Shown in pieces: positions 1 to 56,381 of a stretch of 64,000 nucleotides of DNA. Location of the stretch: IMG/VR virus record IMGVR_UViG_3300033074_002003, one strand, 5' to 3'. A program made the translations under genes and the position numbers. Within the stretch, counting starts at the first letter, position 1. Each line of letters begins with the position of its first letter. The notes under the pieces were generated by a model. That model was not told where the DNA came from and made no database searches. It saw nothing but the letters and a program-made list of their open reading frames with translations. Source of the stretch: a virus.

Positions 1-324
1 ATGGCGTGCCCGCGATTGACGATAGGTATGCGACAAACGAACGATTGAAGAGAGCGCCCTCTCGACTGTGTTGAACTATTGCTGCACAGCGAGACCCGGC
101 AAATCCGGTGAGGTAGTGAATTGCGAGAGCGCTGACAACGCCCGAGCGATTGAGTCCCTGGTGACACGTTACGAGCGCAGTCTTTCCCTCTCTTACTGCG
201 GCGGCAACAGCCTGTGCGGCAGAGTGCCAAGACGAAATCCAGTGCTCTGGGATGACACACTCCGCGTCGATCGAAGGTGCTCTGATCACTTGGACGCCCG
301 GGAATCCGAGATCCTGTGGTCCGT

Positions 325-1230
325 CTACTTGGTACTCTTTCGCACAGAGGACAACCACATCGATCCCGGAATCACGCAGGCTGTTTCCTTGCGGTGGGCG
401 AGGACCCTGGTAGATCCTCTGGAAAACCATATCAGCACTGTATTGCACTTGTCACTGGCCTTTTCTGGCTCTCGCGCGGATGGTGTCGAATGACTCCGGC
501 GCGGCGAGGTTGCCAGCATTGTACACCTCGCGCATGATAGAGTAAGGCACTTTCGCGGCACCATCCCGGAGAACAGCGCGCGAATCCTATCCGCGTCGCT
601 GCCCGATGTATTGCTCTCGTGCGCGCAGTAGTTGAAATACGGCCTGCGTCCCGTTGCAGCGTGCCAGAGCTCTCCCTCTCGCGCGATCTGCGCGAGCGTC
701 AGCTTTGCCCTGAACGGCACGAGAGCATTTCGAGCCTCGTCGGTGCTCTCATGGACAGAAAACTGCAACCCGACTGTCGGAACATCGACAGACAGCTTTC
801 TCATCTGCGAATAATCAACGTCGGGTGCACTCGTGCTGACAAGTAGGGCCGCCTTGGGATAGAGCGAGTGCAACTTTCGAACTGCAACATCGAGCTCTTT
901 CATGTTGAGCAGTGGTTCTCCCATGCTCATGAACATGATCTGCAGCTTATCGACCGCACTTGCGTCGATATTGTTCGCAGCGAAGAGGTGCGCGGGCTGC
1001 TCGACGATCTCGTCTGAGGTGAGACTTCGCACGAAGGAGTCGCCAGCACCGCAGAATCGGCATCCGACTGGGCACCCGCTCTGGGTCGAGATGCACATCA
1101 CCGTCCTCTGTTCGTACGTCGGGTACTTGTAGAGGACGGATTCGGCGACAGCATCACCTCGTTCGAAGACGTACTTCAGAACGTTGGCATCGGAGCTGCG
1201 GACGACGCGGGTAGAGTCCCAGTGTTTCAT
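325..1230 (-). CDS. radical SAM enzyme of the RlmN/Cfr RNA methyltransferase family; N-terminally short, and the last ~80 codons are compositionally odd so the C-terminal boundary is uncertain
   Basis: CPVGCRFC (CxxxCxxC) at aa 52-59; MSMGEPLL SAM-binding motif; LLVSTSAP and LQFSVHESTDEARNALVP resemble the RlmN STSG and SLHAPNDELR..LVP motifs. Confidence 0.55.
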   Translation of the reverse strand: MKHWDSTRVVRSSDANVLKYVFERGDAVAESVLYKYPTYEQRTVMCISTQSGCPVGCRFCGAGDSFVRSLTSDEIVEQPAHLFAANNIDASAVDKLQIMFMSMGEPLLNMKELDVAVRKLHSLYPKAALLVSTSAPDVDYSQMRKLSVDVPTVGLQFSVHESTDEARNALVPFRAKLTLAQIAREGELWHAATGRRPYFNYCAHESNTSGSDADRIRALFSGMVPRKCLTLSCARCTMLATSPRRSHSTPSAREPEKASDKCNTVLIWFSRGSTRVLAHRKETACVIPGSMWLSSVRKSTK

Positions 1231-1239
1231 TGCAGCCTC

Positions 1240-2271
1240 CTAGAACTTCTGCGCGAAGTGCGTGATGATGTGGAAGTGGTCCTCAAAGAAAGAGGCCTCG
1301 CTAGCGAACACCTCATTGAGTGGCATCCACCACGCTTTTTCGGCGTCATCGCTACCCCTGACACGCGGCAATTCGCCCGTGCCGAGATCAATTGCAAATG
1401 CGTGTGTGATCGTACGACCCCGGAGAGAGCGACCTGGGTGATCGAACACGTGAGAATCGACGATCGCAGATGACAGTTGCGCGTTTGAGACCTTGATGCC
1501 CGTCTCTTCACGAAGCTCTCGGATCGCACCGGCTCTGATCGTCTCTTTCTGATTGAGGAACCCACCCGGGAGCGCAAAGAGGCCCTTCCCGGGATTGCCC
1601 TTCCTCTTTACGACGAGGACGTGACCGCTCTTGAACACGACGGCATCGACGGTCACAAACATGGGCGGGAACGGAGCGCCTCTCCATGCTTCTTTGTACG
1701 ATTCGATGAAGTGAAACTCTTCCTTGAGAGCCTCAAACTTATCACTCTTGCTGAACTTGAGCAAGAAGTCCGTCACAGCCGCGGGCAAGTAGTTTTGAAA
1801 CTCAGCATCGCCGCGAAAATACAGCTCGCGAATCTCGGTCGCGCCCTTCACACCCTTGATCTCGTCCGTCTCAACGAACTTCCACTGCGGGAAGATGCGA
1901 AGGTAGAAAGAGCTGTCGTCTTTCTCATGGCCGAAAAGAGCTATCGTGGGTGAGGCGTGCTCGGTGGCACCAGTCGTAATTTCGCTCACCTGGCGCTGCA
2001 CCGACGTCACCCACACGTTGTCGTTGTAGAGGTGATCGTTTGCCAACACAAACCTGATGTGCTGCTGCTCTTCGTACGTCAGCGAGTTGAGAATCATCGC
2101 GCCGCGCTCTGCAGCGGTCCAGGGATTCTTGGTCGTCCTGGGTTTGTTGCAGCTACCGATCACAACAATCAGGGTCTCACACCGCTCGAGCGCAAATTTG
2201 ACAGACGCCAGGTGCGCGACGTGAAACGGCTCGAAACGACCGATGTAGACACCAAAATCAAACTTTTCCAT
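1240..2271 (-). CDS. nadM: bifunctional NMN adenylyltransferase / Nudix ADP-ribose pyrophosphatase (NadM-Nudix, NatV-like)
   Basis: N-terminal GRFEPFHVAHL nucleotidyltransferase (H/T)xGH motif; C-terminal Nudix box GGFLNQKETIRAGAIRELREETG. Confidence 0.8.
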   Translation of the reverse strand: MEKFDFGVYIGRFEPFHVAHLASVKFALERCETLIVVIGSCNKPRTTKNPWTAAERGAMILNSLTYEEQQHIRFVLANDHLYNDNVWVTSVQRQVSEITTGATEHASPTIALFGHEKDDSSFYLRIFPQWKFVETDEIKGVKGATEIRELYFRGDAEFQNYLPAAVTDFLLKFSKSDKFEALKEEFHFIESYKEAWRGAPFPPMFVTVDAVVFKSGHVLVVKRKGNPGKGLFALPGGFLNQKETIRAGAIRELREETGIKVSNAQLSSAIVDSHVFDHPGRSLRGRTITHAFAIDLGTGELPRVRGSDDAEKAWWMPLNEVFASEASFFEDHFHIITHFAQKF

Positions 2272-2392
2272 GACACACTCTCCGTGTATTAGGCGTCACT
2301 CGCTCACTGCAAGTATCGACACCAGAGCAGCTTCTCGTGCTCCTGACTATAGGATATGGCGACCCGTGAGTTTGTACACAAAATGCTCTAAC

Positions 2393-3511
2393 TCAGGACG
2401 CCTTTTCAGTATCATCCTTGGTTGAATCGAGCTCAATCTTCACTGCACCCGTCGGAGTGACCTTCTTGAACGCAAGCGCCTCGAAGTACTTCACTGCCTC
2501 CTGATCTTCAAGATTCACGGGTCCACCCATTCTCTTCGAAACGGCGCGACCGAACATTCTCTCCCAATCGCGGTGCTCGGGTGCCCTAACTTCGAGGTTC
2601 TTCTTCCAGGATGCTTCGATGACTGTCGGCGCAATTCCGAGCTGCTTCGCCTGATAGACAAGCGCATTTACGTCCTTCGGGAAACAGTGACCGCCATAGC
2701 CCCGCGAGCCGTCAGGACCCGGCACTGCCCAGTGAGAAGTTCCGAGCCGCTCATCGAGCCGAGCGTATTCAACGACCTTGTCGTAGTCGATATTCGCGCC
2801 CGTGGCATCGAGTGCCTCACAGATCTGTGACATCTCGTTCGCGAAGGCAACCTTCGTGGCGAGGAAGCAATTCGTCACGTACTTTACCATCTCGGCTGTC
2901 GTCGAGCTCGTCTTGATGAGCTTCACGCTCGGGAATGCAGACTGGAAGATCTCCTTCACCTTGTTGATGTGGGGACGCGGCCCGCCGAGGACGATCCTGT
3001 TCTGGTTCCTCATGTCATCGAGAGCGTTTGCCTCTGTGAGGAACTCGGGGCTGAATACGACGCGGAGACCTGTGCCGGCGTACTTCTTGTTCCACGCTTC
3101 TGTCGAGCCAGGTGGAACGGTAGACTTCACGACCGCGATGCGCGAGCCGGGAACTTTTGCAAGTTCATCGAGCGTTGACTCTACGATAGAGAGGTCGGCA
3201 GCACCGTCCTCATACATGGGTGTCGGAAGGCAGACGAAGTAGACGCCCGAGAAAAGGTGCTGTCTCTCACACTCTTCGACAAAGCCGCGCGTATTGGGAA
3301 CCTCTGCTTGTTCCGCGGGCAGAGTGTCGAGGCCGGCATTCTTTTGCATCTGCTCGAACGAGATAGAAGCTGCAATGAGCGCAGTGCCCCCCTCGGCGAC
3401 CTTTCCCATCTTGTCGTAGACAAACACGGTAAACCCGCGCTCATTCATGACAGTAGTGAGAGACCCGCCGACAAAACCTTGACCAATGATCGCTAGCGAT
3501 TGATTTTTCAT
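2393..3511 (-). CDS. ugd: UDP-glucose 6-dehydrogenase (makes UDP-glucuronic acid)
   Basis: N-terminal Rossmann IIGQGFVGG; catalytic-Cys motif GGHCFPKD; overall UDPG/MGDP dehydrogenase layout. Confidence 0.85.
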   Translation of the reverse strand: MKNQSLAIIGQGFVGGSLTTVMNERGFTVFVYDKMGKVAEGGTALIAASISFEQMQKNAGLDTLPAEQAEVPNTRGFVEECERQHLFSGVYFVCLPTPMYEDGAADLSIVESTLDELAKVPGSRIAVVKSTVPPGSTEAWNKKYAGTGLRVVFSPEFLTEANALDDMRNQNRIVLGGPRPHINKVKEIFQSAFPSVKLIKTSSTTAEMVKYVTNCFLATKVAFANEMSQICEALDATGANIDYDKVVEYARLDERLGTSHWAVPGPDGSRGYGGHCFPKDVNALVYQAKQLGIAPTVIEASWKKNLEVRAPEHRDWERMFGRAVSKRMGGPVNLEDQEAVKYFEALAFKKVTPTGAVKIELDSTKDDTEKAS

Positions 3512-4296
3512 TGTTCGTTCCTAATCCAGCTACGATAGCCCAACACTTCTAGCTCACCCTGAGTAACCCAACGATAACTCATTTGCTTAGTTTCAGCAAA
3601 TTTATGAAGCGCAAAACGTTTGAATTCAGCATTTTTATCACGACCCTTTACTTCTTCAATCGATACTCGATCACGAGTTACCAAGAAATCAGGGACAAAC
3701 ATTTTCGGAACGCCATCACAATTTGTGTATGGTATGCGAATACCATGACGTTTTGTCCACATCACAACAGTGACATCACTATCAAGTCTTTGCATGTAAA
3801 ACTTTTCAAGCATTGAATCATAGAAGAAAGATTCACTTGATTTTGATGATGTATACCAACCTTTACGCCCATACCCATTTGTATTGGGTATTGTCCCGTC
3901 AGCAATGCCGCGAGCTCGAGACTCTGACATTCTTTGACACGTTTCTGCTGTGTGGTGTTTTCCAAAGAAAGGATTATTTTCACCCGTAAAACGTTGGCTA
4001 TTTAGCGCAATTTTTCTACGAGCTTCTTCAGTGTGTGTTTTGCCGAAAAAAGAATTTCCTTCGCCTTTACGAGCTAAAGACATCTTAGCACGAGTTTCAA
4101 GTGATGCTTTCTTCCCACGTTTAGATGCGCTCAGCTTTGCTTTACTTTCAATAGAAAAATGCTTTCCGCGAAATGGATTGTTCCTTGTTGTGAAGCAACT
4201 TCGGCACTCTTGCTTTCGTTGTTCAGCACGTAAAAATGCTTGTTCACCCTTGTATGTCAACTCACGATTACATGTTGGACAATTTCGCACAAACAC
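3508..4296 (-). CDS. homing-endonuclease-like protein: N-terminal Zn finger, three NUMOD3 DNA-binding repeats and a C-terminal putative PD-(D/E)XK-like nuclease domain
   Basis: CPTCN..CRSC finger; repeats NPFRGKHFSIESKAKLS / NSFFGKTHTEEARRKIA / NPFFGKHHTAETCQRMS; C-terminal FVPDFLV..IEEVKG; local GC ~42% versus ~55% in flanks; ATGA overlap with ugd. Confidence 0.6.
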   Translation of the reverse strand: MFVRNCPTCNRELTYKGEQAFLRAEQRKQECRSCFTTRNNPFRGKHFSIESKAKLSASKRGKKASLETRAKMSLARKGEGNSFFGKTHTEEARRKIALNSQRFTGENNPFFGKHHTAETCQRMSESRARGIADGTIPNTNGYGRKGWYTSSKSSESFFYDSMLEKFYMQRLDSDVTVVMWTKRHGIRIPYTNCDGVPKMFVPDFLVTRDRVSIEEVKGRDKNAEFKRFALHKFAETKQMSYRWVTQGELEVLGYRSWIRNEQ

Positions 4297-5051: not shown

Positions 5052-5822
5052 TCAGCGAAACCTATTTCTCATGATCGAGACAGCCTGTTCGTTGCTATCG
5101 ACCAAGATGCACGTTCGACCCGTATTCAGCGCCGCCTGTCCTGTCGTTCCTGAACCCGCAAAAAAATCTAGGACCGTCCCACCCACCGGGCAAGAGGCTC
5201 TGATCGCTCGCTCAACGAGCTTCACGGGCTTCTGCGTTGGGTAGTGCCCACCGAACTCCCTCTCTTTACTCTGCGTTCCGACAATAGACATCCACCACAC
5301 GTCTGTCGGATTTTTTCCTGCGGCCGCTCGGTCGGCATCTTTCTGCAGTCCGGGCGCCATGTAGGGAATCTTGTCAATGTCATCCCAGTTGAATACGTGC
5401 CCACCGAACGATTTCACGTACACAAGAATGTCATCGTGCTTCCTGGGCCACCGATTTTTCCCGCGCCCGCCGTAATCATAGGCCCAAATCACGTGGTTGA
5501 GGAAGTTGTGTCGACCGAAGATCTCATCGGCGACTGGTTTCACGTCAAACACCGAGTGATAGTCTAGGTGGATGTAGATCGTCCCACTGTCTTTCAATAC
5601 AGCGTGAGCTGCGCTGAGGTAATTTCGAGTGAATTGAACGTAGTCACCCACACTAAATGAGTCACGATAACGAACACCAGCATCCTCCGTAGATTTTTGC
5701 GTGTAACCGCAGTTGAAAGGCGGGTCGACGTAAATCATATCGATCGACTGTTTTGCGCGCGCAGACAGAAATTCCACACAATCACCGTGATGAATCTCTA
5801 GCGGCGAAGCGCCGCCACCCAT
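5052..5822 (-). CDS. beta-class DNA N6-adenine/N4-cytosine methyltransferase with no adjacent restriction enzyme; likely starts at the internal Met (MGGGASPLEIHHGDCVEF) of the longer ORF 5052..6053
   Basis: Motif IV IYVDPPF precedes C-terminal motif I FAGSGTTG (beta-class order); the upstream 77 codons are Arg-rich and overlap the ATP-grasp gene in another frame. Confidence 0.75.
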   Translation of the reverse strand: MGGGASPLEIHHGDCVEFLSARAKQSIDMIYVDPPFNCGYTQKSTEDAGVRYRDSFSVGDYVQFTRNYLSAAHAVLKDSGTIYIHLDYHSVFDVKPVADEIFGRHNFLNHVIWAYDYGGRGKNRWPRKHDDILVYVKSFGGHVFNWDDIDKIPYMAPGLQKDADRAAAGKNPTDVWWMSIVGTQSKEREFGGHYPTQKPVKLVERAIRASCPVGGTVLDFFAGSGTTGQAALNTGRTCILVDSNEQAVSIMRNRFR

Positions 5823-5845
5823 CTCATCTGGCGCTGGGCCTCTTC

Positions 5846-6646
5846 TCACGTGAGCACTTCTTTCCGCAGTGCGACGTACAGATCGAGAGCTTCGTTCATC
5901 GACAGCCCGGACTGTTGGCCGTCGTTCACTTCGACGACGATCCACCCGCCATCTTGCTTCTGTGCCACATCGACAGCAAAGAACGTGACGTGCTGCGCGA
6001 TGATCTCTGCAACAGATGCCAGAAATTCGGGTGGCGGTCGGGACGTGATCCACTCGGGAGGCACGTCTTCACCGTGCGTCGACCAGTAGTATCCCGTCGT
6101 CAGTTCTGTTGTCTTGTAGAAGAACGAGCGATACTCGCGTGTGATCGGGAGCCCGTGATCTGACCTGCAGTGTGTGAGCAGTGGGACGTACTCTCTGATG
6201 TAGATGTCCTGTTCACCCACAAGAGAATCGGCCGTGAGTCGTGAGTGGACTCGCACGGCGTCCTCGAAAGTCTCTGCGTACATGTGAGTGTCCCACAGAA
6301 ATTTCATCGAGTTCGTCGCGCCCTTCAGGACGAAAGGTCCCTTCGCGTCTCTTATATCCTGAAGCCTAAACCACGTCTTTGGCGTGAGGTCGCCGAGAGC
6401 CGTAGACCACTCGCGCATATCTGCACAGAACTGGTGTTCTCTGTATGTGTTTATGAGTGCACCACCGAGAAGTTCTATATCGTTCTCGAATTCCTTGAAG
6501 AAGGGCAGTGCAGAGTAGCGAGGCACGACAAAATCGCCAGGCTGTACGGCTGCGCGCTGGCGAATGACAGTGAATCCCGCCTGCTGCGCGGCCTCCCGTT
6601 CGTGGTCTTCTTCGCGACCCCCTCGCAGTAGCACTACAGTTCTCAC
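5846..6646 (-). CDS. ATP-grasp fold ligase-like protein
   Basis: C-terminal GGWIVVEVNDGQQSG resembles the ATP-grasp C-terminal strand (cf. RimK ..VMEVNASPG); ATGA overlap with glf. Confidence 0.45.
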   Translation of the reverse strand: MRTVVLLRGGREEDHEREAAQQAGFTVIRQRAAVQPGDFVVPRYSALPFFKEFENDIELLGGALINTYREHQFCADMREWSTALGDLTPKTWFRLQDIRDAKGPFVLKGATNSMKFLWDTHMYAETFEDAVRVHSRLTADSLVGEQDIYIREYVPLLTHCRSDHGLPITREYRSFFYKTTELTTGYYWSTHGEDVPPEWITSRPPPEFLASVAEIIAQHVTFFAVDVAQKQDGGWIVVEVNDGQQSGLSMNEALDLYVALRKEVLT

Positions 6647-29679: not shown

Positions 29680-29917
29680 CCCACTCTTTGGCGAACTGAA
29701 CACAGAGCGCCTTGCAGCAGAAAATCTGAAGTGCCGTGAGATCGTTAGAGAGATTGTCAACTTTGGTGTTACAGAGAGGCAGTTGTTTGTCATTATCAAG
29801 CTTCTAGCTTATGAGCTCGAAAGTGTTGATGCGATGCGCGAGCTTGTTGCGCACGTAGATGAACTCTGTAACGAGATCGGTATTTCGTCAAATAGTACAT
29901 CAGGAGAAGCACGATAA
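29672..29917 (+). CDS. hypothetical small protein
   Basis: ATGA-coupled to clpP. Confidence 0.3.
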   Translation: MASPLFGELNTERLAAENLKCREIVREIVNFGVTERQLFVIIKLLAYELESVDAMRELVAHVDELCNEIGISSNSTSGEAR

Positions 29918-30492
29918 TGGGAAGGCAAGCTGCTAAAACAACCGGAGACAGTGAATTCGGCGAAGCTCCCTCGATGGGAATTGCGCTAGCAGAAGACAGG
30001 ATCGTATTTCTGTCTGGTGACGTTACAGAACACTCAATCACGCAAGTGCAAGCACAGCTAATTTCGCTCGCAAATCACAGCAAGTTGCCGATTACGCTAG
30101 TCGTGAGCACATACGGTGGTTCGGTGGACGAGATGTTCAGTCTGTATGACACGATCAAGTTTATCGGCGTGCCCATTCATACAGTCGGGCTCGGAAAGAT
30201 CATGTCAGCTGGTGTCTTGCTTCTCGCTGCGGGTGCAAAAGGCAAGAGACTCATTGGGACTCACGCGCGCATCATGATTCATCCGCTCTCGGGTGGATCT
30301 GGCGGCAATGTTTTCGAGATGCAAAATGACACGGCCGAACACCAGCGCCTGCAGGAGCTTCTCGTCAAAGCGATGTTGCAAGAGACGAAGTTTAAGAGGC
30401 CTGATCTCGAGAAGCTCATGAAATCTGGTTACGACTGCTACCTCACCGCGCAAGACGCGATTCGCCATGGAATCGTAGATAGTCAAATCTGA
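29917..30492 (+). CDS. clpP: ClpP-family serine protease subunit
   Basis: Ser motif GKIMSAG; His motif RIMIHPLSGG; C-terminal Asp in GIVDSQI; collinear with ClpP. Confidence 0.8.
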   Translation: MGRQAAKTTGDSEFGEAPSMGIALAEDRIVFLSGDVTEHSITQVQAQLISLANHSKLPITLVVSTYGGSVDEMFSLYDTIKFIGVPIHTVGLGKIMSAGVLLLAAGAKGKRLIGTHARIMIHPLSGGSGGNVFEMQNDTAEHQRLQELLVKAMLQETKFKRPDLEKLMKSGYDCYLTAQDAIRHGIVDSQI

Positions 30493-31208: not shown

Positions 31209-31478
31209 GCGGCGCTTGATCGTTCCTTCAATCTGACAGATTCTCATACGTGTGAGTCCATACAATTTTCCCACCTCTTCGAGGGTCTTCGCACCCTCGG
31301 ATGCAGAAATGATCGAGCAATTTTGTGCAGACGCCGCGGCAGCCAGCCAGTGTCTGCACGTGCTCTTTTTGCACGGTACGCGGTGCTTTGCGTGAGTCTC
31401 ATAACATGTGGGCATTTGTAGATCATCTCTCCGGTTACGCCTTAGAATCTCATACGTGACGCGTTGTTGTTCAAACAT
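31191..31478 (-). CDS. small Zn-finger protein whose C-terminus is a sigma-70 region 4.2-like HTH
   Basis: TLEEVGKLYGLTRMRICQIEGTIKRRL versus RpoD [28 protein letters not shown]; N-terminal C/H cluster PTCYETHAKHRVPCKKSTCRH. Confidence 0.6.
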   Translation of the reverse strand: MFEQQRVTYEILRRNRRDDLQMPTCYETHAKHRVPCKKSTCRHWLAAAASAQNCSIISASEGAKTLEEVGKLYGLTRMRICQIEGTIKRRLRVVD

Positions 31479-31493
31479 GAAAGAGTGTTCTTG

Positions 31494-32888
31494 ATGTCAA
31501 ATGCCGTGGAAAAGTGCTTTGTTCTAGACACAAATGTCCTTCTCAGCGATCCTTCGTCAATTTACTCGTTTGAAGAGCACACTGTAGTGATTCCGCTCAT
31601 TGTCCTCGAGGAACTCGATAGGCAGAAGAGCAGGCAGGACGAGGTCGGTAAGAGCGCTCGTGCGGTCGCGCGCGAGCTCGACGATCTGAGGGCGACTGGC
31701 AATTTGTTCGACGGAGTTCGCCTCGCTCACGGAACAGCGACGGGAATTCTTCAGATCAAAAGCCTCTCTAGCACGCTTTCACTCGATAAGCTACCACCTG
31801 AGCTTCGAACCGGAAGTGCTGACAATATCATCATTTCGCTTGCAAAGCTCCTTACTGACGTGCTGACGTCAAAAAAAGTCGTTCTTGTGTCGAAAGACAT
31901 CAACGTCAGGCTGAAGGCCGATTCTATCGGTGTGGTAGCAGATGACTACCTCAAGATGAGGGTGACCACAGACAAGGAACACATCTACGGCGGAGTGATG
32001 AGACTCGACGTGCCAGCCGACGTTCTTGAGAGGTTCTACACCGAAAAGAAGGTCGACGCCGTGGGCGATTTCTTTGACGTGCACGAATTTCAACCGAATC
32101 AGTTTGTCGTCATGAAGGACGTCGCCGCACCGGGAAAATCGGCCATCGGTCGGTTTGTCTTGGTGAATGGAATGCCGACGATCCAGCAGTTCAAGTTTGC
32201 TCGCGAAGCTATGGCTGTCTTCGGTGGGCTCGCTCCAAAGAACAAGGAGCAGATCTTTGCCCTTGAGTTGCTGCTCGATCCGAGCGTGAAGCTCGTGACG
32301 CTTCTCGGTGCCGCGGGAACAGGTAAGACACTCTTGTCTGTTGCTGCGGGACTGAACCAAGTAAGTGGCATCTCGGGGGTCGCAAACGCGCCGTACAGCA
32401 AGCTCATCGTGACGCGGCCGATCCAACCTCTCGGAAAGGACATCGGGTTCCTTCCCGGAACGCTCGAAGAGAAGATGGACCCGTGGATCTCACCGATCAA
32501 GGATTCACTCAACTTTCTCTTCGGGAAGCCGAAGGCAAAGCGTGAGGACGAGACGATGCTATCGATGCACCTCGAGAAAAAGAAGATCGAGATCGAAGCG
32601 CTGACATACATCCGCGGGCGCTCTATTCCAGACTCTTTCATCATCATCGACGAGGCACAGAACCTATCTGTTCACGAGCTGAAGACGATCATTACTCGCG
32701 TGAGCGAGGGAACGAAGATCGTCCTGACGGGAGACATTGAGCAGATCGACAACACGCACGTCGATGTATACTCGAACGGTCTGACACACGCCGTCGAGAA
32801 ATTCAAGTACTATCCGATTTCTGGGCACGTGACCATGCGAAAGGGCGAGCGTAGCGAGTTGGCGACGTTGGCCGCTAGTATTCTGTGA
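31494..32888 (+). CDS. phoH: PIN-domain / PhoH-like ATPase fusion (PhoH2/YlaK-like)
   Basis: N-terminal PIN FVLDTNVLLSD..IPLIVLEELD; Walker A LLGAAGTGKT; Walker B IIIDEAQN. Confidence 0.8.
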   Translation: MSNAVEKCFVLDTNVLLSDPSSIYSFEEHTVVIPLIVLEELDRQKSRQDEVGKSARAVARELDDLRATGNLFDGVRLAHGTATGILQIKSLSSTLSLDKLPPELRTGSADNIIISLAKLLTDVLTSKKVVLVSKDINVRLKADSIGVVADDYLKMRVTTDKEHIYGGVMRLDVPADVLERFYTEKKVDAVGDFFDVHEFQPNQFVVMKDVAAPGKSAIGRFVLVNGMPTIQQFKFAREAMAVFGGLAPKNKEQIFALELLLDPSVKLVTLLGAAGTGKTLLSVAAGLNQVSGISGVANAPYSKLIVTRPIQPLGKDIGFLPGTLEEKMDPWISPIKDSLNFLFGKPKAKREDETMLSMHLEKKKIEIEALTYIRGRSIPDSFIIIDEAQNLSVHELKTIITRVSEGTKIVLTGDIEQIDNTHVDVYSNGLTHAVEKFKYYPISGHVTMRKGERSELATLAASIL

Positions 32889-47457: not shown

Positions 47458-48286
47458 GCTCTCAGACGATCTTGTGCACTGTTGGGTCTGTGGCTATAGT
47501 TCGAGGAACCTTGTCCCGCTTCTCAGGAAGTTTGGAAGCCACGATGACCTGAGTTTCTACATCGAGAAGTCTGGGTCATCTCTCACATTTCAGAAGCCCG
47601 CCGAAGACGAAAGCGTTCCACTGAAGTTGCCCGAGGGGTTCAGGTTGATCGCCCCACTCATCGGCCGCGGCGATCGAGACGTTGTTCGTGCGATGCGATA
47701 CCTCAAGGAGCGCGGGCTCACAGCGTCAGACGCGTGGTACTACAAGTTTGGTGTCGCTCCGACGCTCCCAGATCGCGTCATCATGCCCTCATTCGATCAA
47801 GTGGGTGGGCTAAATTTCTGGACGGCCCGTTCGATCGTTGACGCTCGTCCGAAGTACATCGATCCCCCGAAGGAGTGTGTGAGGAAGAATGAGATCATCT
47901 TCAATGAGATCAACATTGACTGGAAGAAGGAGCTTGTCATCGTCGAGGGCCCATTTGACCTGACGAAGTGTCCCACCAATACGACAGCCCTTCGAGGCAA
48001 CCAACTCTCTGAAGAGTCTCGGCTACTTATACAGATCGTGATCCACGAGACTCCTTGTGTCGTGATGCTTGACGACGATGCAACTGATCGCGCCGGGAAA
48101 ATCGTGAGGACATTGGCGTCGTACGGCGTCACTGCAAAGCGCGCTAACCTCGGCGAATTTCACGATCCGGGCGAGATGACGAAGAAACAGGTTGCCGACT
48201 GCGTAAAAGCCGCACGTGAGCTACAATGGGAAGATCACCTCTCCGACAAGCTTTCTAAATTGGATCGCCTTCACCTCTCGTTTTGA
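47309..48286 (+). CDS. DnaG-type DNA primase (Zn ribbon plus TOPRIM), T4 gp61-like
   Basis: CPICLQQ..HCWVCGY zinc ribbon; TOPRIM ELVIVEGPFD and VVMLDDDATDRAG. Confidence 0.7.
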   Translation: MFALSDKVKFIERVFGKGDVTRNLTNIQVTCPICLQQSQKWSQKRKLAVRLSDDLVHCWVCGYSSRNLVPLLRKFGSHDDLSFYIEKSGSSLTFQKPAEDESVPLKLPEGFRLIAPLIGRGDRDVVRAMRYLKERGLTASDAWYYKFGVAPTLPDRVIMPSFDQVGGLNFWTARSIVDARPKYIDPPKECVRKNEIIFNEINIDWKKELVIVEGPFDLTKCPTNTTALRGNQLSEESRLLIQIVIHETPCVVMLDDDATDRAGKIVRTLASYGVTAKRANLGEFHDPGEMTKKQVADCVKAARELQWEDHLSDKLSKLDRLHLSF

Positions 48287-51200
48287 GGCACATGAAAATC
48301 TGTCACATCGCAGACATCCACATCCGTTCGATCAGCAGGCACGATGAGTACCGAACTGTGTTTCAGAGTCTCATCGACGACCTGAAAAAAGATCCCGTTG
48401 ACGTTATCTTTGTCGGGGGCGATGTCTGGCACACGAAAACAGCTGGGCTCACACCTGAGTACATCGACTTCATGCGGTGGTGGCTGACAGAGCTCGCGAA
48501 TTGTGCCGAGCTGTTTGTTACTCTTGGAAATCACGACGGAAATCTCGTCAACACTGACAGGCAGGATGCAGTGTCGCCGATCGTCGCCGCCCTCGCAAAC
48601 CCGCGCGTGAAGCTGTACAAGAAGAGCGGTGTATATGAGTTCAAGAAGGGCTGGAACTTCTGCGTCTACTCGCTATTCGATCGCGAGGGGTGGAAGAATG
48701 TATCACCCGAGAAGGGGAAGATCAACATCGCGTGCTATCACGGCGGTGTCAGGTCTTCTCTGACCGAGACGGGTTGGCCAATCGAAGAGGGCCCGTCTGT
48801 CGACTTCTTCGACGGGTATGACCTTGTCCTCCTCGGTGACATCCATCGCCAGCAGTTTCTCGGCAGCCCGAAGAACGGACAGCCGTGGATCGCGTACCCC
48901 GGAACGCCAGTCTGTCAGAACTACGCAGAGGGCTACCAGAAGCACGGGTACCTAAAATGGGTGCTGAATGATGACGGTGTCGTAAGCTCTGTTGATTTCG
49001 TCGAGCTGAAGCAACCGAACCCGTTCGTGACAGTCGACTGGGAGGGCGATCGAGAGAAGTTCGTCAAAGATATCGAGGAGCTTCCGGAGGCAGCGAGGTT
49101 CCGTGTCAAGAGCTCTGTGTTCGTATCACAGGATGACATGGGTGTCATCTCTGCGACACTGAAGAAGAAGAAATCGGCGATCGAAGTCGTCTTGAAGTCT
49201 GAGGTGACACACAAGAAGGACGTGTTCTCGGCGGGCGGCCTTGAGATGATGCGCGATGACTTGCGCAATGTCGAGGTCCTGACACTTCTCTTGAAGGATT
49301 TCTATCGCGGTATCTCTATCAGCAATTCTGAGTGGGATGACGTCACGAAACTCGTTGAGAAGTACTTGCGATCGGCTTCGAGTGACGACGAGTCACCGCG
49401 ACACGTCAAGTGGAGAATCGGCGAATTCTCGTTCGAGAACCTGTACTCTTACGGGCTCGGCAACAAGATCAACTTTGAGAAGCTGTCTGGTATCGTCGGA
49501 ATTTTCGGACCTAACAGGTCTGGGAAGTCATCGATCGTCGGGACGATGATGTATGGTCTCTTCAACACGACAGATCGCGGGGCGGTCAAAAACCTTCAGA
49601 TCGTAAATGACAGGAAGTCCTCCGGCGAGGCGAAGATCGCACTTCAGGTGGGTGAAGCGAAGTACGTGCTGACGCGTGAGACAAACAAAACAGACACGAA
49701 GAAGGGCATCACAGTCGCGGCCACTTCACTCGATCTGAGGCGTATCGCCGCTGACGGCTCTCTTGTGAACATGAACGGTGAGCAGAGAAATGACACCGAG
49801 AAGACGATCAGGAAGTTGATCGGTACACAGGACGATTTCCTGCTCACGTCAATGTCAACACAGGGTGATCTGAACAAGTTCATCAACGAGGGCTCTGCCT
49901 TCAGGAAACTGATTCTCACGAAGTTCCTCGACCTCGACATCTTTGAGAAGATGCACGAAGCAGCCAAAGCAGAGCTCAAAGCGGCGACAGCGATATCAAA
50001 GACGATCCCAAAGCGTGATTGGCCAGCAGAGCTAAAGAAGATCGACACAAAGCTGTCTAATTTTGATGACTTCGCAGAGAAGATCGAGACAAAGCTGTCT
50101 GAGCTTCGGGCATCGCTGCATACCGCACAGGTGAAGCTCGCGCTGTATAAAAACACCTCAACTGTGTCAGAGGACGAAATTTCTGCCGCAGTAGCTCTTC
50201 TAGAGTCGTACGTTGCTTCTTCTGAAGCGCTCGAAGTGCAGCTCAAGAAGCTTCGCCTCTCGCTGGAAAATGGTCACGATGCCCACGCTCGCGTCCTATC
50301 CCTTCTCGAGAACTACGACGCAGAACAGCTACGAATTGAGCGTGATAACGGCGTAGCACTAAAATCTGCGGCAAAGACGCTTGAGGCACAGCTCACTCGC
50401 GCGAAAGAGGATGTCGAGAGGTTGAAGAGGTCCGCAAAGAAGCTAAGTGTCGTCCCATGCGAAGACAAGTTTCCCACGTGCATGTTCATCAAAGACTCTC
50501 ACGTCGATAGGGGAGAACTACCCGCCGCAGAACAGAATGTCGCCGAACTAGAAAAATCTCTCGAGAGCACAAATTCGGCATTTTCTGACTGGCAGAAGCT
50601 CGATACGGAGAAGAAGTTCGCAGAGCACGCTCGCCTCCTGACAGAAGAGAGGTCACTCGCAAACGCTATCTCGGCGTCAGAGGTGTCGGTCACAAAGACA
50701 GAGAGCCAACTTAGTATTGCGAACGCGAAGCGCGGAGCACAGAAGATCAAGGTCGATGAGCTCGTCGAGGCTGCGGCTCGTGCGGAGAGTGTCGAGGCAC
50801 TTACTCTCCAGAGAGAGTGCGACTCGATCAACGAAGACATCAAGCGTTACGACAAAATGAAAGTCGATGCCGCCACCAGTCGCGGCAAATTTGAGACTGA
50901 GGCGAAGCAGCTGAAGTCACAGCAGTCACAGTACGAAAAAGTTCAGCATGACATTCACGTGACGGAGCTGATCTCAGAGGCTTTCTCGAAGCGCGGAATT
51001 CCCACGAAAATCATCAATTCGCAGCTGCCGGCGATAAACGCTACTGTCGCTGAAATTCTCCATGGCGTTGTGGATTACACGATTGAGTTCGTTGCGGACG
51101 AGGACTCGAACGCCCTTGACGTGATCTTGAACTACGGCGATTCAAAGAGGGTTATCGAGCTCGGATCTGGCATGGAGAAACTATTTGCGTCACTTGCAAT

Positions 51201-51438
51201 CAGGGTGGCACTTCACACGATCACCTCGCTCCCAAAGACCGACATGTTTGTCATTGACGAAGGATTTGGCTCTCTGGACGACCTCAATGTGGAGCCCTGT
51301 AATCGCCTCTTGAGATCGCTGAAGAGGTACTTCGGAACGGTGATTGTCATCACACACGTGGGTGGTATCAAGGATTCTGCCGACACGATCATTGAGATCG
51401 CTCGAGACGGAAAAGACTCGAAGGTGGTCGCAGAATGA
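48283..51438 (+). CDS. single-polypeptide fusion of Mre11/SbcD-like nuclease (T4 gp47-like) and Rad50/SbcC-like ABC ATPase (T4 gp46-like)
   Basis: N-terminal phosphoesterase motifs ICHIADIHI, FVGGDVWH, TLGNHD; Walker A FGPNRSGKSS at ~aa 410; long coiled coil with CEDKFPTC hook-like motif; signature GSGMEK; Walker B MFVIDEGFGSLD; H-loop IVITHV. Confidence 0.75.
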   Translation: MRHMKICHIADIHIRSISRHDEYRTVFQSLIDDLKKDPVDVIFVGGDVWHTKTAGLTPEYIDFMRWWLTELANCAELFVTLGNHDGNLVNTDRQDAVSPIVAALANPRVKLYKKSGVYEFKKGWNFCVYSLFDREGWKNVSPEKGKINIACYHGGVRSSLTETGWPIEEGPSVDFFDGYDLVLLGDIHRQQFLGSPKNGQPWIAYPGTPVCQNYAEGYQKHGYLKWVLNDDGVVSSVDFVELKQPNPFVTVDWEGDREKFVKDIEELPEAARFRVKSSVFVSQDDMGVISATLKKKKSAIEVVLKSEVTHKKDVFSAGGLEMMRDDLRNVEVLTLLLKDFYRGISISNSEWDDVTKLVEKYLRSASSDDESPRHVKWRIGEFSFENLYSYGLGNKINFEKLSGIVGIFGPNRSGKSSIVGTMMYGLFNTTDRGAVKNLQIVNDRKSSGEAKIALQVGEAKYVLTRETNKTDTKKGITVAATSLDLRRIAADGSLVNMNGEQRNDTEKTIRKLIGTQDDFLLTSMSTQGDLNKFINEGSAFRKLILTKFLDLDIFEKMHEAAKAELKAATAISKTIPKRDWPAELKKIDTKLSNFDDFAEKIETKLSELRASLHTAQVKLALYKNTSTVSEDEISAAVALLESYVASSEALEVQLKKLRLSLENGHDAHARVLSLLENYDAEQLRIERDNGVALKSAAKTLEAQLTRAKEDVERLKRSAKKLSVVPCEDKFPTCMFIKDSHVDRGELPAAEQNVAELEKSLESTNSAFSDWQKLDTEKKFAEHARLLTEERSLANAISASEVSVTKTESQLSIANAKRGAQKIKVDELVEAAARAESVEALTLQRECDSINEDIKRYDKMKVDAATSRGKFETEAKQLKSQQSQYEKVQHDIHVTELISEAFSKRGIPTKIINSQLPAINATVAEILHGVVDYTIEFVADEDSNALDVILNYGDSKRVIELGSGMEKLFASLAIRVALHTITSLPKTDMFVIDEGFGSLDDLNVEPCNRLLRSLKRYFGTVIVITHVGGIKDSADTIIEIARDGKDSKVVAE

Positions 51439-51746: not shown

Positions 51747-52139
51747 ATGGAACTCGAAAATGGCCTTGATGTAGATGCTTTGGGACAGGCGACGGACAAC
51801 ACGTTCGGGCGGTCGTCTACAACGGCGTGTGCGACAAACTCTGTAAAAATCAGGCTAGTCGGCGACGGTCTGCTGCAGGTAGATTACCTGTCTTCTGTCA
51901 CGTATGCGTCAGATGCGATGATGCGCGACGTGATGAAGAAGTACGGTGATGAGTCTGATTCTGCGATCAATTCTGCGATGAAGACGGTGAAAGCAGAGTA
52001 CCGCAGGATCTGCGACAAGCAGCTGAAAGCAAAAGCTGTAGGCAATCCCGACTCGTCGATCGAGGCTGTGAACATGTCGTCTCACAGTCCCATCAAGCGT
52101 GGTTTCTACCGGAAGCGCTGTGTGTTTGAGGTGAAGTGA
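51747..52139 (+). CDS. 16: terminase small subunit (T4 gp16-like)
   Basis: Sits immediately upstream of, and ATGA-coupled to, terminase large; N-terminus MELENGLDVDALGQ resembles T4 gp16 MEGLDINKLLDISDL. Confidence 0.5.
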   Translation: MELENGLDVDALGQATDNTFGRSSTTACATNSVKIRLVGDGLLQVDYLSSVTYASDAMMRDVMKKYGDESDSAINSAMKTVKAEYRRICDKQLKAKAVGNPDSSIEAVNMSSHSPIKRGFYRKRCVFEVK

Positions 52140-53806
52140 TGACTGCTCCCAAAGCAGCGGTCTCTACCAAAGAGATCATGCGAAAAGAGCTCATCGCGTG
52201 TGCCGAGAGCCCAGAGTACTTCCTGAAGACATACGCAAAAATCGTTCACCCTACAAGGGGGCGAATTCCATTTAAGACCTACGCATTTCAGGATGACTGT
52301 CTGAAGTCGTTCATGGATCACCGCTTCAATATCGTCCTGAAGTCGCGCCAGCTCGGTCTCTCGACCGTGACAGCGGGATTTGCCACGTGGTACGCTATGT
52401 TCGCGCGCGACAAGACAGTTCTTGTTATCGCGACGAAGCTAGACGTCGCGATGAACTTCATCAAGAAGGTGAAGACGATCCTCTCAAATCTCCCACCATG
52501 GTTCGGCAGCGTCGTCTCTATCAAAGGCGAGACAAAAAAGTCGATCGAGCTTGCGAATGGCTCTACGATCACCGCTATCCCGACTTCCGAAGACGCCGGT
52601 CGTTCAGAAGCGCTGTCACTCCTGATCGTAGATGAGGCGGCAATCATCAAGGACTTCGAAGAGGTATGGACAGGCCTCTATCCGACGATCTCAACGGGAG
52701 GTCGCGCCATCCTGCTCTCTACGCCGAAGGGCGCGATGGGACAGTTCTACGAAATCTGGCAGCAGGCGATAAACGGCGAGAACGATTTCAATGCCACAAA
52801 GTTGATGTGGTACGTGCACCCAGAGCACGACGAAGAGTGGTTCAAAAAAGAGACTCGGGGCTTCTCACCGCGTAAAATCAGCCAGGAATTTTTGTGCGAC
52901 TTCAACGCGTCCGGCGATACTTTCATCACAGTCGATGACATGGAATGGTTGCGCTCGCAAGTCCAAGCGTGTGTGGATCGCTGGGGAGATGACGGGAACG
53001 TGTGGGTGTGGGAGAAGCCGCAGTACGGTGAGAAGTATTGCCTGTCGGGCGACGTGTCTCGAGGCAATGCGGAGGACTTTTCTACATTCCACGTTTTCAA
53101 GATGTCTACAAATGAGCTCGTCGCTGAGTACAAGGGTAAGTTGCCTCCTGATGAATTCGGCATGCTCATCAACGACATCGGCAAGAGGTACAATACCGCG
53201 CTAGTGTGTCCAGAGAACAACACGTTCGGATACTCTACGATCAGAGCACTGAAGACCGCGGGATACAAGAACCTCTACTACGAGGGTAGGCGACCAGGCT
53301 ACGTTCCGTATGACGAGAAAGAGATGGCGGGATTCTCGACGCAGAAAAATACGCGTGAGAAGATTCTAACCAACCTAGAGAGAGCCATCAGAAACAAGAC
53401 GATCAAGCTTCGCTCTGAGAGGTTGTACCTAGAGCTGAAGACATTCGTATGGATTGGCCAACGTGCCCGGGCACAGGACGGAAATCACGATGACCTCGTG
53501 ATGAGTGCAGCCATCGGTGCTTACCTTCTGGATCCGAACGGTGGGGCTGTTGACAATGGTGATGCTGCTGGCTTGCTCGGTGCAATGTCCGTGTCGTCTC
53601 GCGACGCGGGTGAGATTTCTGGCATGGGCAGGGATATCACCGCGCTTACGAATCCCAACATGATGGTCGCTGCAACGAACCGGGTCGCGATGCGACCCAT
53701 CATGGGATCTGAGACGATCGGAGTACAGGAGCAGCTGCGCAACATGGGATTTGGGGCGCGAGATCAGAGCCTTAGCGATTTTTCGTGGGTGCTCAAGGGA
53801 CGCTGA
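52136..53806 (+). CDS. 17: terminase large subunit (T4 gp17-like ATPase/nuclease)
   Basis: KSRQLGLSTVTAGF ~ gp17 SRQLGKTTVVAIF; ELANGSTITA ~ ELDNGSSIGA; LLIVDEAAII Walker B; HDDLVMSAAIGAYL ~ gp17 HDDLVMSLVIFGWL. Confidence 0.9.
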   Translation: MMTAPKAAVSTKEIMRKELIACAESPEYFLKTYAKIVHPTRGRIPFKTYAFQDDCLKSFMDHRFNIVLKSRQLGLSTVTAGFATWYAMFARDKTVLVIATKLDVAMNFIKKVKTILSNLPPWFGSVVSIKGETKKSIELANGSTITAIPTSEDAGRSEALSLLIVDEAAIIKDFEEVWTGLYPTISTGGRAILLSTPKGAMGQFYEIWQQAINGENDFNATKLMWYVHPEHDEEWFKKETRGFSPRKISQEFLCDFNASGDTFITVDDMEWLRSQVQACVDRWGDDGNVWVWEKPQYGEKYCLSGDVSRGNAEDFSTFHVFKMSTNELVAEYKGKLPPDEFGMLINDIGKRYNTALVCPENNTFGYSTIRALKTAGYKNLYYEGRRPGYVPYDEKEMAGFSTQKNTREKILTNLERAIRNKTIKLRSERLYLELKTFVWIGQRARAQDGNHDDLVMSAAIGAYLLDPNGGAVDNGDAAGLLGAMSVSSRDAGEISGMGRDITALTNPNMMVAATNRVAMRPIMGSETIGVQEQLRNMGFGARDQSLSDFSWVLKGR

Positions 53807-54312: not shown

Positions 54313-54356
54313 TTCAGACTTTAAGGGCGGTGCGACAATGGCACGCTGGAGCGAAT

Positions 54357-56381
54357 ATGTCAACAAGGCAACGTGAGACTCTTTTTCGCAGGCTTACCAA
54401 ACTTTTCAAGTCTGGGCCCGTAGTAAAGAGAAAGGTAAAGCAGCAAGATACGAGGCAGGCGGGGCCCGATCCCGATAAGTCGTCAGCTGTTCTAACGTTC
54501 CAGAAGTCATATTCGCCCATCTACAACACGATCGTCAGTAATGCGTTCAACCTTTCAGAAAGGCTAGCGCGATACCAAGATTTCAACTCGATGGAAATGA
54601 CGCCGGAAATTTCCAAGGCGCTAGACCTCTACGCCGACGAAAGTGTGGCCCAAGACGATGTGGGACGTACACTTCACATCTACTCCGACAACCCGAAGGT
54701 GAAAGGTCTACTTGAGGAGCTCTTCTACGATACGCTGAACGTTGAATTCAACCTCAGACCGTGGGTGCGGAACCTGGTTAAATACGGCGACCTGTTCCTC
54801 TTTAACGACGTGCATCCCAGGTTTGGCCTGATCAACGTGATCCCGATCCCTGTGAATGAGCTCGAGCGCGAAGAGGGATTTGACAGGGAAGATCCAACAG
54901 CGGTCAGGTTTCGCTGGACGACGATGAACAACAACCTGCTCGAGAACTGGCAGGTGACACACATCAGGCTCATGAGCAATGACATGTTCTTGCCTTACGG
55001 TACGAGCATGATCGAGTCAGCAAGGAAGATCTGGCGACAGCTGATGCTCATCGAGGACGCGATGCTCGTATATCGCGTCGTCCGTGCACCCGAGCGTCGA
55101 GTCTTCTACATTGACGTCGGAAATACGCCAAATGATGAGGTGCCAAACCTCATGGAACAGGCGAGAATGAAACTTCGCACGTCACAGGTGATAGACCAGT
55201 CGACATCACGTGTAGATGTCAGATACAATCCCCTGAGCGTTGATGAGGATTATTTCATACCTCGGCGCGGAGCTGAGGGTGGAACAAAGATCGAGACGCT
55301 GGCGGGCGGGCAGAACACCGCTGCTGTCGAGGACGTTCAGTACATTCAGAGGAAGCTCTTCGCAGCACTGGGAATCCCAAAGGCGTACCTAGGCTACGAC
55401 GAGATGCTCTCCAGCAAGGCGACACTCGCTCAGGAGGACATTAGATTTTCGCGCACAGTGAACATGATCCAGCGCACTCTGATCTCAGAGCTCAACAAGA
55501 TGGCGATCATTCACCTTGCCGCGCACGGGTTTGACGGTGAAGACCTGCTGAACTTCCGACTTCACCTCTCAAATCCTTCTACAGTTGCTCAACAGCAGAA
55601 GCTTGAGCTCTACCGGACGAAGTTTGAGATTGCCGCTGCTGGACAGCAGGTCGAGAACCTCGTCGACATGCAGTTCCTCAGAAAGAAGATTTTGGGCCTC
55701 ACTGACGAAGAGATCGATGAGATCAAGTCTGGACAGCTTACTGACGCAGAGTTCCTTGCGGGTGTAGAAGCTGGCGGCGAGGGTGGTGGAGGCGGAGGTC
55801 TTGGTGGGGGAGGCGGCGGAGGTGGAGGCGGGGGTCCATTTGGCGATGAAGACGCTCCCGACGAAGAGGGTGCCGACACCGAAGATGAACCAGAGAAAGA
55901 AGAGGGTGACGATGTCGAACCGGGCGTCGAGCTCATCAGAAGCGGTGACGATGATAGTGGAAGCGGAAAACCGCTGAAAATCTCGATCGCCGACCCGTCA
56001 GCACCACTGAAGACAAAGGCTACCGTGTTGGGTGCGGCTCTTACGAAGAGGCGTCGCAAGAAGCACCATGGCAATGAGATCGAGCAGAGACCCGATTTCT
56101 TGAGGATGACGTCGATGAAGGGTCACAGAGACGACGATCCTTTCGATATGTCATGGATCAAGACATCCGCACGCAACCCACTGGGCGAGGGCCTCGCTCC
56201 GACCCTGAGCTGGAACCTCAGCTCAATGATCGATCGCATGGCGAAGAAGATCGGAATACGCCGCGGGTACACCGCGTCGCCAGTTCCTGCGAATATCCTC
56301 TCAGAGGGCGTTGAAGACGTTGAAATCGATATCAACATTGATGGCGAAGAACAAGACGATAGTTATGACGGAGACACCTGA
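54357..56381 (+). CDS. 20: portal vertex protein (T4 gp20-like) with a ~150-aa C-terminal poly-Gly/acidic extension
   Basis: LDLYADESVAQDD ~ gp20 VSEIVSDAIVYEDD; GGAG RBS 6 nt before ATG 54357; GGEGGGGGGLGGGGGGGGGGGPFGDEDAPDEEGADTEDEPEKEEGDD at aa ~473-520. Confidence 0.8.
   Translation: MSTRQRETLFRRLTKLFKSGPVVKRKVKQQDTRQAGPDPDKSSAVLTFQKSYSPIYNTIVSNAFNLSERLARYQDFNSMEMTPEISKALDLYADESVAQDDVGRTLHIYSDNPKVKGLLEELFYDTLNVEFNLRPWVRNLVKYGDLFLFNDVHPRFGLINVIPIPVNELEREEGFDREDPTAVRFRWTTMNNNLLENWQVTHIRLMSNDMFLPYGTSMIESARKIWRQLMLIEDAMLVYRVVRAPERRVFYIDVGNTPNDEVPNLMEQARMKLRTSQVIDQSTSRVDVRYNPLSVDEDYFIPRRGAEGGTKIETLAGGQNTAAVEDVQYIQRKLFAALGIPKAYLGYDEMLSSKATLAQEDIRFSRTVNMIQRTLISELNKMAIIHLAAHGFDGEDLLNFRLHLSNPSTVAQQQKLELYRTKFEIAAAGQQVENLVDMQFLRKKILGLTDEEIDEIKSGQLTDAEFLAGVEAGGEGGGGGGLGGGGGGGGGGGPFGDEDAPDEEGADTEDEPEKEEGDDVEPGVELIRSGDDDSGSGKPLKISIADPSAPLKTKATVLGAALTKRRRKKHHGNEIEQRPDFLRMTSMKGHRDDDPFDMSWIKTSARNPLGEGLAPTLSWNLSSMIDRMAKKIGIRRGYTASPVPANILSEGVEDVEIDINIDGEEQDDSYDGDT

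Follow-up and report, generated by a model that had tools for sequence, protein, structure and literature searches.

Can a phage still profit from a nicotinamide adenine dinucleotide (NAD+) salvage enzyme once the gene for its partner has gone? The question is raised by natV, a NadM-Nudix gene near one end of a 64-kb stretch of the virus record IMGVR_UViG_3300033074_002003 (hereafter the window, meaning that whole stretch, to which all coordinates refer unless a contig is named). The reading that we favour, with a probability of roughly 85%, is that natV is the NatV half of a two-gene NARP2-type NAD+ salvage operon in a distant T4-like phage, and that the second gene, nadV, has been deleted here.

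NARP2 consists of the KVP40 proteins Nampt and Nmnat, which yield NAD+ from phosphoribosyl pyrophosphate (PRPP), nicotinamide and ATP; the KVP40 gene pair was shown to rescue phages from NAD+-depleting systems, Thoeris among them, and Nmnat is also present in 94% of the phages that carry this Nampt (bioRxiv 10.1101/2024.02.11.579819). The pathway also cancels the aRES defence, and has been called 'metabolically wasteful and somewhat toxic'. Genes of the natV type are ordinary for large phages, and their counter-defence role is already published as NARP2; the new part is a natural nadV knockout that arose through a microhomology deletion and apparently coexists with the intact allele, together with an independent truncation in a relative.

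A full-length NadM-Nudix protein

The natV gene is one intact open reading frame (ORF) that starts with the ATG at 2271-2269 and includes its stop codon (Table 1); its GC content of 55% is in line with that of neighbouring genes. Pfam detected a CTP_transf_like domain (amino acids (aa) 8-61) and a NUDIX domain (aa 206-335, E=1.6e-20), and the NCBIfam equivalog NF003791 ('bifunctional nicotinamide-nucleotide adenylyltransferase/Nudix hydroxylase', the same family as PRK05379) matched the protein with 429.1 bits against a curated cutoff of 409, aa 2-342 aligning with positions 3-339 of the 340 in the profile. Full-length matches were also obtained to the PDB entries 2qjo (E=3.6e-111, aa 3-342) and 2qjt (E=1.9e-65), and the protein matched phrog_395 (1.3e-76). 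The fusion of a nicotinamide mononucleotide (NMN) adenylyltransferase and a Nudix box in a single protein, which a preliminary description of this DNA had put forward, was confirmed by Pfam, by NF003791 and by both PDB entries. A consensus scan for promoters and terminators around natV returned sites no more frequently than in shuffled sequence, and none that was convincing in the leader.

The same description had given the first nucleotidyltransferase motif as HxGH; the actual motif is HVAH. In 2qjo and 2qjt the motif is HxGH, and all other motif residues align with those of NatV, including the second motif, GATEIR, which aligns with SSTAIR in 2qjo and NATEFR in 2qjt. HxAH predominates among the 120 closest homologues (HNAH in 36, HLAH in 36 and HVAH in 5, with HxGH in about 17), and the replacement of glycine by alanine is therefore usual in the family. 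When we aligned 123 sequences (NatV of the window, the two PDB proteins and 120 database homologues), 63 NatV residues were at least 97% conserved, including G11, R12, P15, H17, H20, R148, G237, E243, R251, E252, E255 and E256. The preliminary description had allowed that catalytic residues might be missing on alignment; the motif residues are present and belong to this conserved set. With a full-length equivalog match, both nucleotidyltransferase motifs and the glutamates of the Nudix box, the protein displays all the sequence features of the NadM-Nudix family. NatV is thus a NadM-Nudix protein, and probably an active one.

Two other views of the protein can be weighed against these data. According to the first, it would be a generic cytidylyltransferase, as had also been considered at the outset, or a MutT-type housekeeping Nudix enzyme, in either case unrelated to NAD+. 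PHROGs and many GenBank records do label homologues 'cytidyltransferase', and Pfam names broad families only, but the full-length match is to the specific bifunctional NadM-Nudix equivalog and lies above its curated cutoff, the matches to two solved NadM-Nudix structures likewise span the whole protein, and the MutT, NudC, CoaD and NadD models scored only 18-30 bits against cutoffs of 98-187, the top models all being NMN adenylyltransferase (NMNAT) or NadM. This leaves the generic view with next to no probability. A NadR-type NMNAT is likewise excluded by TIGR01526 (40.3 bits vs a cutoff of 341) and NF005988 (19.9 vs 201), and by a C-terminal half that is Nudix.

According to the second view, the Nudix half would carry the main role, either destroying ADP-ribose-derived immune signals or toxic ADP-ribose, or decapping NAD-RNA, in place of a role in NAD+ synthesis. 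Identity to 2qjo, taken from the alignment, is 49.4% across the whole protein; at 60%, against 41% for the NMNAT half, the Nudix half is the better conserved. In a review of viral NAD+/ADP-ribose systems, ADP-ribose-processing domains of viruses such as Macro and NADAR are proposed to prefer soluble ADP-ribose derivatives from host conflict systems. We nevertheless judge such a role highly improbable: every NMNAT motif is complete and conserved, the two activities together define the family, and natV forms an operon with nadV in nearly all related viral loci.

Deletion of nadV beside natV

The first 2,400 bases of the window are 100% identical to the Logan contig SRR32380195_54745, and blastn showed that both lack 2,534 bp of the intact allele (6740-9273 of contig L002). 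The left side of the junction in the intact allele reads ...GATTCGCGCGCTGTTC followed by GATCC..., its right side reads ...GGTTCGCACCGCTGTTC followed by TCCGGG..., and the window reads ...GATTCGCGCGCTGTTCTCCGGG... across the join. The last base common to both alleles closes GCGCGCTGTTC, which continues as TCCGGGATGG in the deletion allele and as GATCCGAAC in the intact one. Lost with the deletion are the 3' third of a radical-SAM gene, a 324-aa ORF (orf324) and nadV codons 1-419. What is left of the radical-SAM gene now runs into 81 out-of-frame codons, which cross the nadV remnant and enter the next gene. The natV gene itself is unchanged by the deletion, and its product is identical to that of the nadV+ siblings described below.

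In a tblastn search of the whole window with the sibling NadV, the only match was this remnant, at 455-577 and with 100% identity. The preliminary statement that no nadV is seen in the window thus holds for an intact gene, but the last 41 codons remain; the accompanying advice to seek nadV in the rest of the genome overlooked the place of the gene, which lies directly 3' of natV, where it has been deleted and a remnant left. Of the two proteins that NARP2 requires, the 64-kb window encodes an intact NatV and no intact NadV. Outgroups carry an intact nadV, and in the window each flanking gene is truncated; the allele of the window is therefore the derived, deleted state.

Table 1. Coordinates of natV, of the features at the deletion and of other phage genes in the window.
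Feature	Position	Strand	Details
natV (nadM-nudix), coding sequence	1240..2271	-	343 aa, intact; one ORF, stop codon within coordinates
Halves of NatV			NMN adenylyltransferase, ~aa 1-190; Nudix ADP-ribose pyrophosphatase, ~aa 200-343
natV leader	2272..2392	-	121 nt, intergenic; Shine-Dalgarno GGAGAG at 2283-2278, 6 nt 5' of ATG
HxxH nucleotidyltransferase motif	2212..2223 (codons)	-	H17-V18-A19-H20, within GRFEPFHVAH (aa 11-20); HxAH variant
Second nucleotidyltransferase motif, (S/A)TxxR	1828..1845 (codons)	-	GATEIR, aa 143-148
Nudix box, GX5EX7REUXEEXGU	1495..1563 (codons)	-	GFLNQKETIRAGAIRELREETGI, aa 237-259
Deletion junction	571..578	-	exact 8-bp microhomology CGCTGTTC within a longer, imperfect repeat (~17-18 bp)
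Fusion pseudogene ORF	325..1230	-	aa 1-220 of RlmN/Cfr-like radical-SAM gene (571-1230) plus 81 out-of-frame codons
nadV (NAMPT) remnant	452..577	-	last 41 codons (aa 420-460) and stop; no start codon or catalytic core
DSPc-like cysteine phosphatase	2..430	-	143 aa; P-loop CHQGLNRS (CX5R); intact, stop codon just outside the window
T4-type large terminase	52136-53806		Pfam
T4-type portal	54330-56381		Pfam
Prohead protease	57245-57877		Pfam
Gp23-type major capsid protein	61723-63630	+	635 aa; Pfam

Several observations concern the genes around the deletion. The intact radical-SAM gene (L002 6080-7015, 311 aa) encodes a protein that resembles RlmN/Cfr RNA methyltransferases, although TIGR00048, at 89.7 bits, stays far under its cutoff; by eye, a Cys stands ahead of the CX3CX2C cluster (MCISTQSGCPVGCRFC), and the intact copy ends with a C-terminal CGQL. 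Between this gene and nadV in the intact allele lies orf324 (L002 7020-7994, minus strand), which matches PHROG families annotated as Holliday junction resolvase, HNH endonuclease and endonuclease. The deletion removes this ORF, a possible marker of a hotspot for recombination or deletion. The phosphatase gene downstream (PF00782, E=1.9e-5, under the cutoff; phrog_10650) is a conserved neighbour downstream of nadV in L002 and in two more distant contigs, L008 and L009. Phosphatases are known to extend the related pathway NARP1. Where the region continues off the window (L002 9432-11761), the phosphatase gene is followed by a 143-aa ORF and by genes for a PTH2-like peptidyl-tRNA hydrolase, a tRNA-binding-domain protein and an HD_4 phosphohydrolase. 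An odd-looking region at 68-540, considered as a possible RNA gene or intron, turned out to consist of the nadV remnant and the phosphatase gene.

The natV-nadV operon in siblings and relatives

An exact-sequence look-up returned 13 contigs encoding an identical NatV, ten of which we inspected. Half of these (5/10), originating from SRR12487013 and four JGI samples, show the intact arrangement of natV, the 311-aa radical-SAM gene, the 324-aa ORF on the opposite strand, a 460-aa nadV and the DSPc-like phosphatase gene. The sibling NadV matched PDB 7yqo (E=3.2e-167), human NAMPT (about 1e-118) and phrog_448 (1.8e-146), and by this homology is a canonical nicotinamide phosphoribosyltransferase.

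The pairing extends to more distant loci. On the 113-kb contig L009, whose NatV is 62% identical to that of the window, a UDP-glucose dehydrogenase gene is followed by natV, a 68-aa ORF and an intact nadV (458 aa), and then by the DSPc-like gene (a tblastn match), one more ORF and the PTH2 gene. In IMG/VR loci with a NatV of 43-53% identity, nadV lies immediately 3' of natV in 6/6 cases, and the same holds for 13 of the 15 JGI metagenome loci that have enough downstream DNA. As nadV stands 3' of natV in nearly all related loci, natV-nadV is the ancestral operon of the group.

A different picture emerged from L008, a 126-kb contig whose NatV is 61% identical. Directly after its natV lies a 215-aa ORF (L008 9037-9684), residues 55-215 of which correspond, in frame, to NadV residues about 298-456; Pfam detects only the C-terminal half of the NAPRTase domain. 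The first 54 residues, which are unrelated to NadV and include a CX3CX2C motif, may be the beginning of another radical-SAM gene. Judged by this gene structure, L008 is a second, independent truncation of nadV beside an intact natV.

The other two of the 15 JGI loci, L024 and L028, were rejected as further phages without nadV because their context is cellular or that of the Preiss-Handler pathway. The neighbours in L024 are ScpA and an aldose epimerase. In L028 (6001-10526) the NadM-Nudix gene (44% identical) is followed by genes for a PncB-type nicotinate phosphoribosyltransferase, the NAD synthase NadE and a PncA-like isochorismatase, and these predicted enzymes are Preiss-Handler partners in place of NadV.

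Support for the deletion in other assemblies

Absence of nadV from the window could also be an assembly artefact, in which case the true genome would read natV, radical-SAM gene, orf324, nadV and the junction would be chimeric. Such an origin would fit with the intact order in five of the ten inspected contigs, with the location of the junction at a short repeat, and with the fact that the fusion ORF is indexed on one contig only, Logan SRR32380195_54745. However, the repeat is exact over only 8 bp and imperfect over ~17-18 bp, which is below typical assembler k-mers. Assembler k-mers are typically longer than a repeat of either length, and k-mers that span the junction should therefore need real reads. 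The junction is moreover shared by the window and the separately produced Logan contig, with 100% identity over 2,400 bp.

Four other contigs, from four samples and two assembly pipelines (SRR32380201, 63 kb; ERZ4216102, 77 kb; SRR32380200; SRR12487046), stop exactly at ...GCGCGCTGTTC, the last base shared by both alleles. An exact common end point of this kind is the expected mark of a fork in the assembly graph where both alleles are present, and suggests that the two coexist in those samples. Given these breaks at the fork point and the shared junction, we consider an assembly artefact very unlikely.

Allele counting relied on exact-protein look-ups. Exact patterns for the junctions of both alleles had no match in IMG/VR, and the 27-mer to the left of the junction had no match in the JGI contig collection.

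If confirmed by reads, the two alleles would amount to a natural experiment in which wild phage populations show what NAD+ reconstitution costs and what it gains, and matched allele pairs would allow one to ask whether NatV acts without NadV.

Predicted consequences of losing nadV

By homology, the N-terminal nucleotidyltransferase domain of NatV, a member of the HIGH superfamily, would convert NMN and ATP to NAD+, and the C-terminal Nudix domain would hydrolyse ADP-ribose, giving AMP and ribose-5-phosphate. Where both genes are present, NadV would make NMN from nicotinamide and PRPP, and the pair would rebuild NAD+ after cleavage by host NADase defences. The 2,534-bp deletion at the 8-bp microhomology has taken nadV out of this scheme and left natV untouched; the deletion variant would retain both the step from NMN to NAD+ and the clearance of ADP-ribose, with NMN supplied by the host. 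With nadV deleted, the phage-encoded loop is predicted to be open and NatV to depend on host NMN; the phage-encoded route from nicotinamide to NAD+ is most likely broken in the deletion variant, and its NARP2-type counter-defence is probably weakened or lost.

These considerations bear on two functional proposals made earlier for the gene. The fusion had been credited with regenerating NAD+ from ADP-ribose, which it would not achieve alone, as ribose-5-phosphate needs a PRPP synthetase and NadV to reach NMN. Counter-defence, the second proposal, is indeed published for the enzyme class as NARP2, but was shown for the pair of NadV and NatV, and the pathway is likely incomplete here.

Candidate causes for the loss of nadV are the cost of the PRPP drain and a deletion hotspot beside the endonuclease-like orf324. 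The deletion appears to segregate in natural populations, which would be consistent with the metabolic cost and toxicity reported for NARP2.

It may also be that NatV is useful alone, making NAD+ from host NMN, removing ADP-ribose and perhaps providing NAD+ for the adjoining UDP-glucose 6-dehydrogenase, so that loss of nadV is tolerated or favoured. The gene is intact in both lineages that lost nadV, the window and L008 (61% identity), the window, L008 and L009 all keep the UDP-glucose dehydrogenase gene immediately 5' of natV, and NARP2 raises NAD+ even when no defence system is present, at a cost that comes through the use of PRPP by NadV. At the same time, the deletion in the window is so recent that natV is unchanged, NadM is reported, from a survey of phage genomes, never to occur without NadV, and the synteny with the dehydrogenase may reflect only shared ancestry within the clade. 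On balance we give NatV acting alone a minor but real chance.

Two independent deletions, together with the apparent coexistence of alleles in several samples, lead to a further reading, in which presence or absence of nadV is a recurrent and possibly balanced polymorphism of the clade, NatV being kept for a NadV-independent function while the costly NadV is repeatedly shed. We regard this as rather unlikely; if true, recurrent shedding of nadV would be at odds with a published generalisation, by which NadM in phages works strictly together with NadV.

Several points weigh against our preferred reading of natV as the remaining half of a NARP2-type operon. The predicted function of NatV depends on 49% identity to a characterised homologue. 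The window covers only 64 kb of the genome, and a second nadV elsewhere is possible. The deletion allele was directly observed only in the window and in one Logan contig, perhaps from the same sample, and the fork that accounts for the four shared contig ends is something that we infer from those ends. As natV is identical to its copies in nadV+ siblings, the deletion is too recent for selection on natV to be judged, and to connect the loss of nadV with the cost of NARP2 is speculative.

NatV among related enzymes and pathways

Within INPHARED, tblastn found the fusion in 484 phage records, 459 of which cover at least 80% of the query, all at no more than 46% identity. Members of the same family among these include Rhodobacter phage RcXuper, Xanthomonas phage LucasX and Synechococcus phages B3 and B23. 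No sequenced isolate therefore exceeds 46% identity to NatV of the window, and the nearest database proteins beyond near-identical copies, at 57-62% identity, are encoded on uncultured metagenomic contigs.

The cellular enzymes behind the two PDB entries, slr0787 of Synechocystis sp. PCC 6803 (2qjo) and the Francisella tularensis protein (2qjt), share both domains and a similar length (341 and 352 aa vs 343), whereas the window protein is phage-encoded and belongs to an operon context with nadV. A recent cyanobacterial origin of natV was considered and dropped in view of the 49.4% identity to slr0787.

The comparison with KVP40 NatV made in the preliminary description holds for the architecture, which is the same: in the KVP40 genus (Schizotequatrovirus), too, NatV is a bifunctional NMNAT-Nudix protein of a T4-like phage, its Nmnat being part of NARP2 (Osterman et al. 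2024). In sequence the two are only distantly related. As KVP40 natV was not found in the two stretches of NC_005083 that we inspected, the homologue of VH7D, a phage of the same genus, was used instead; it is 35.3% identical to NatV of the window (E=2e-55, aa 7-340). No nadV lies within 3 kb of natV in VH7D, whereas in the clade of the window the two genes make up a single operon that starts with natV.

Like NARP2, the phage pathways NARP1 (Adps and Namat) and NARP3 (PnuC and a NadR-like RNK-NMNAT; Sci Adv 2026, PMC13464706) rebuild NAD+ against NADase defences. NARP3 likewise ends in an NMNAT step, but has a ribosylnicotinamide kinase domain, which NatV of the window lacks (TIGR01526, 40 bits vs 341). 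NARP1 uses Namat, in contrast to the canonical Nampt that is the partner in the sibling phages. No PnuC or Prs-like family turned up among the window ORFs scanned with Pfam.

The phage and its other genes

Besides natV, the window encodes the terminase, portal, prohead protease and major capsid protein listed in Table 1. A nucleotide search with its first 12 kb against 50,697 phage records gave no match, and the nearest isolate for the portal protein, Microcystis phage Mel-JY01, is only 40.5% identical. Taken together, the phage genes, the lack of a nucleotide match and the low identity of the portal identify the window as DNA of a distant, deep-branching, uncultured T4-like phage. Scans of the window for tRNA genes and Rfam families came back empty. 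The Gp23 domain match of the capsid protein is split into two stretches and falls mostly at aa 370-624, pointing to a long N-terminal extension or an insertion.

Upstream of natV lies a cluster of sugar-nucleotide and glycan genes (2393-25990, minus strand), which at ~24 kb is unusually large for a phage. Besides the UDP-glucose 6-dehydrogenase discussed above, it encodes a UDP-galactopyranose mutase, a DegT-type aminotransferase, GNAT acetyltransferases, an SDR protein, a Polysacc_synt_2 dehydratase, three GT1/GT4 and two GT2 glycosyltransferases, and two methyltransferases. A homing endonuclease gene with NUMOD3 and TnsA-like domains (3508-4296, minus strand) sits between the UDP-glucose dehydrogenase gene and a 220-aa ORF; its GC content is 40.6% vs 53% for the window, and every sibling contig checked carries it.

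On the plus strand, 48283-51438 is a single ORF of 1,051 aa that joins a calcineurin-like phosphoesterase (Mre11/gp47-like) to an AAA_23/SMC_N ATPase (Rad50/gp46-like). In T4 the Mre11-like and Rad50-like proteins (gp47 and gp46) are the products of separate genes. The same strand carries a PhoH2-type fusion of a PIN domain and PhoH (31464-32888) and a ClpP-family protease (29917-30492). On the minus strand, an R2K-clade ATP-grasp protein (5846-6646) adjoins an N6/N4 DNA methyltransferase (5052-6053); as mechanical calls the two ORFs overlap by ~200 nt, and the gene calls of sibling contigs give a methylase of 256 aa.

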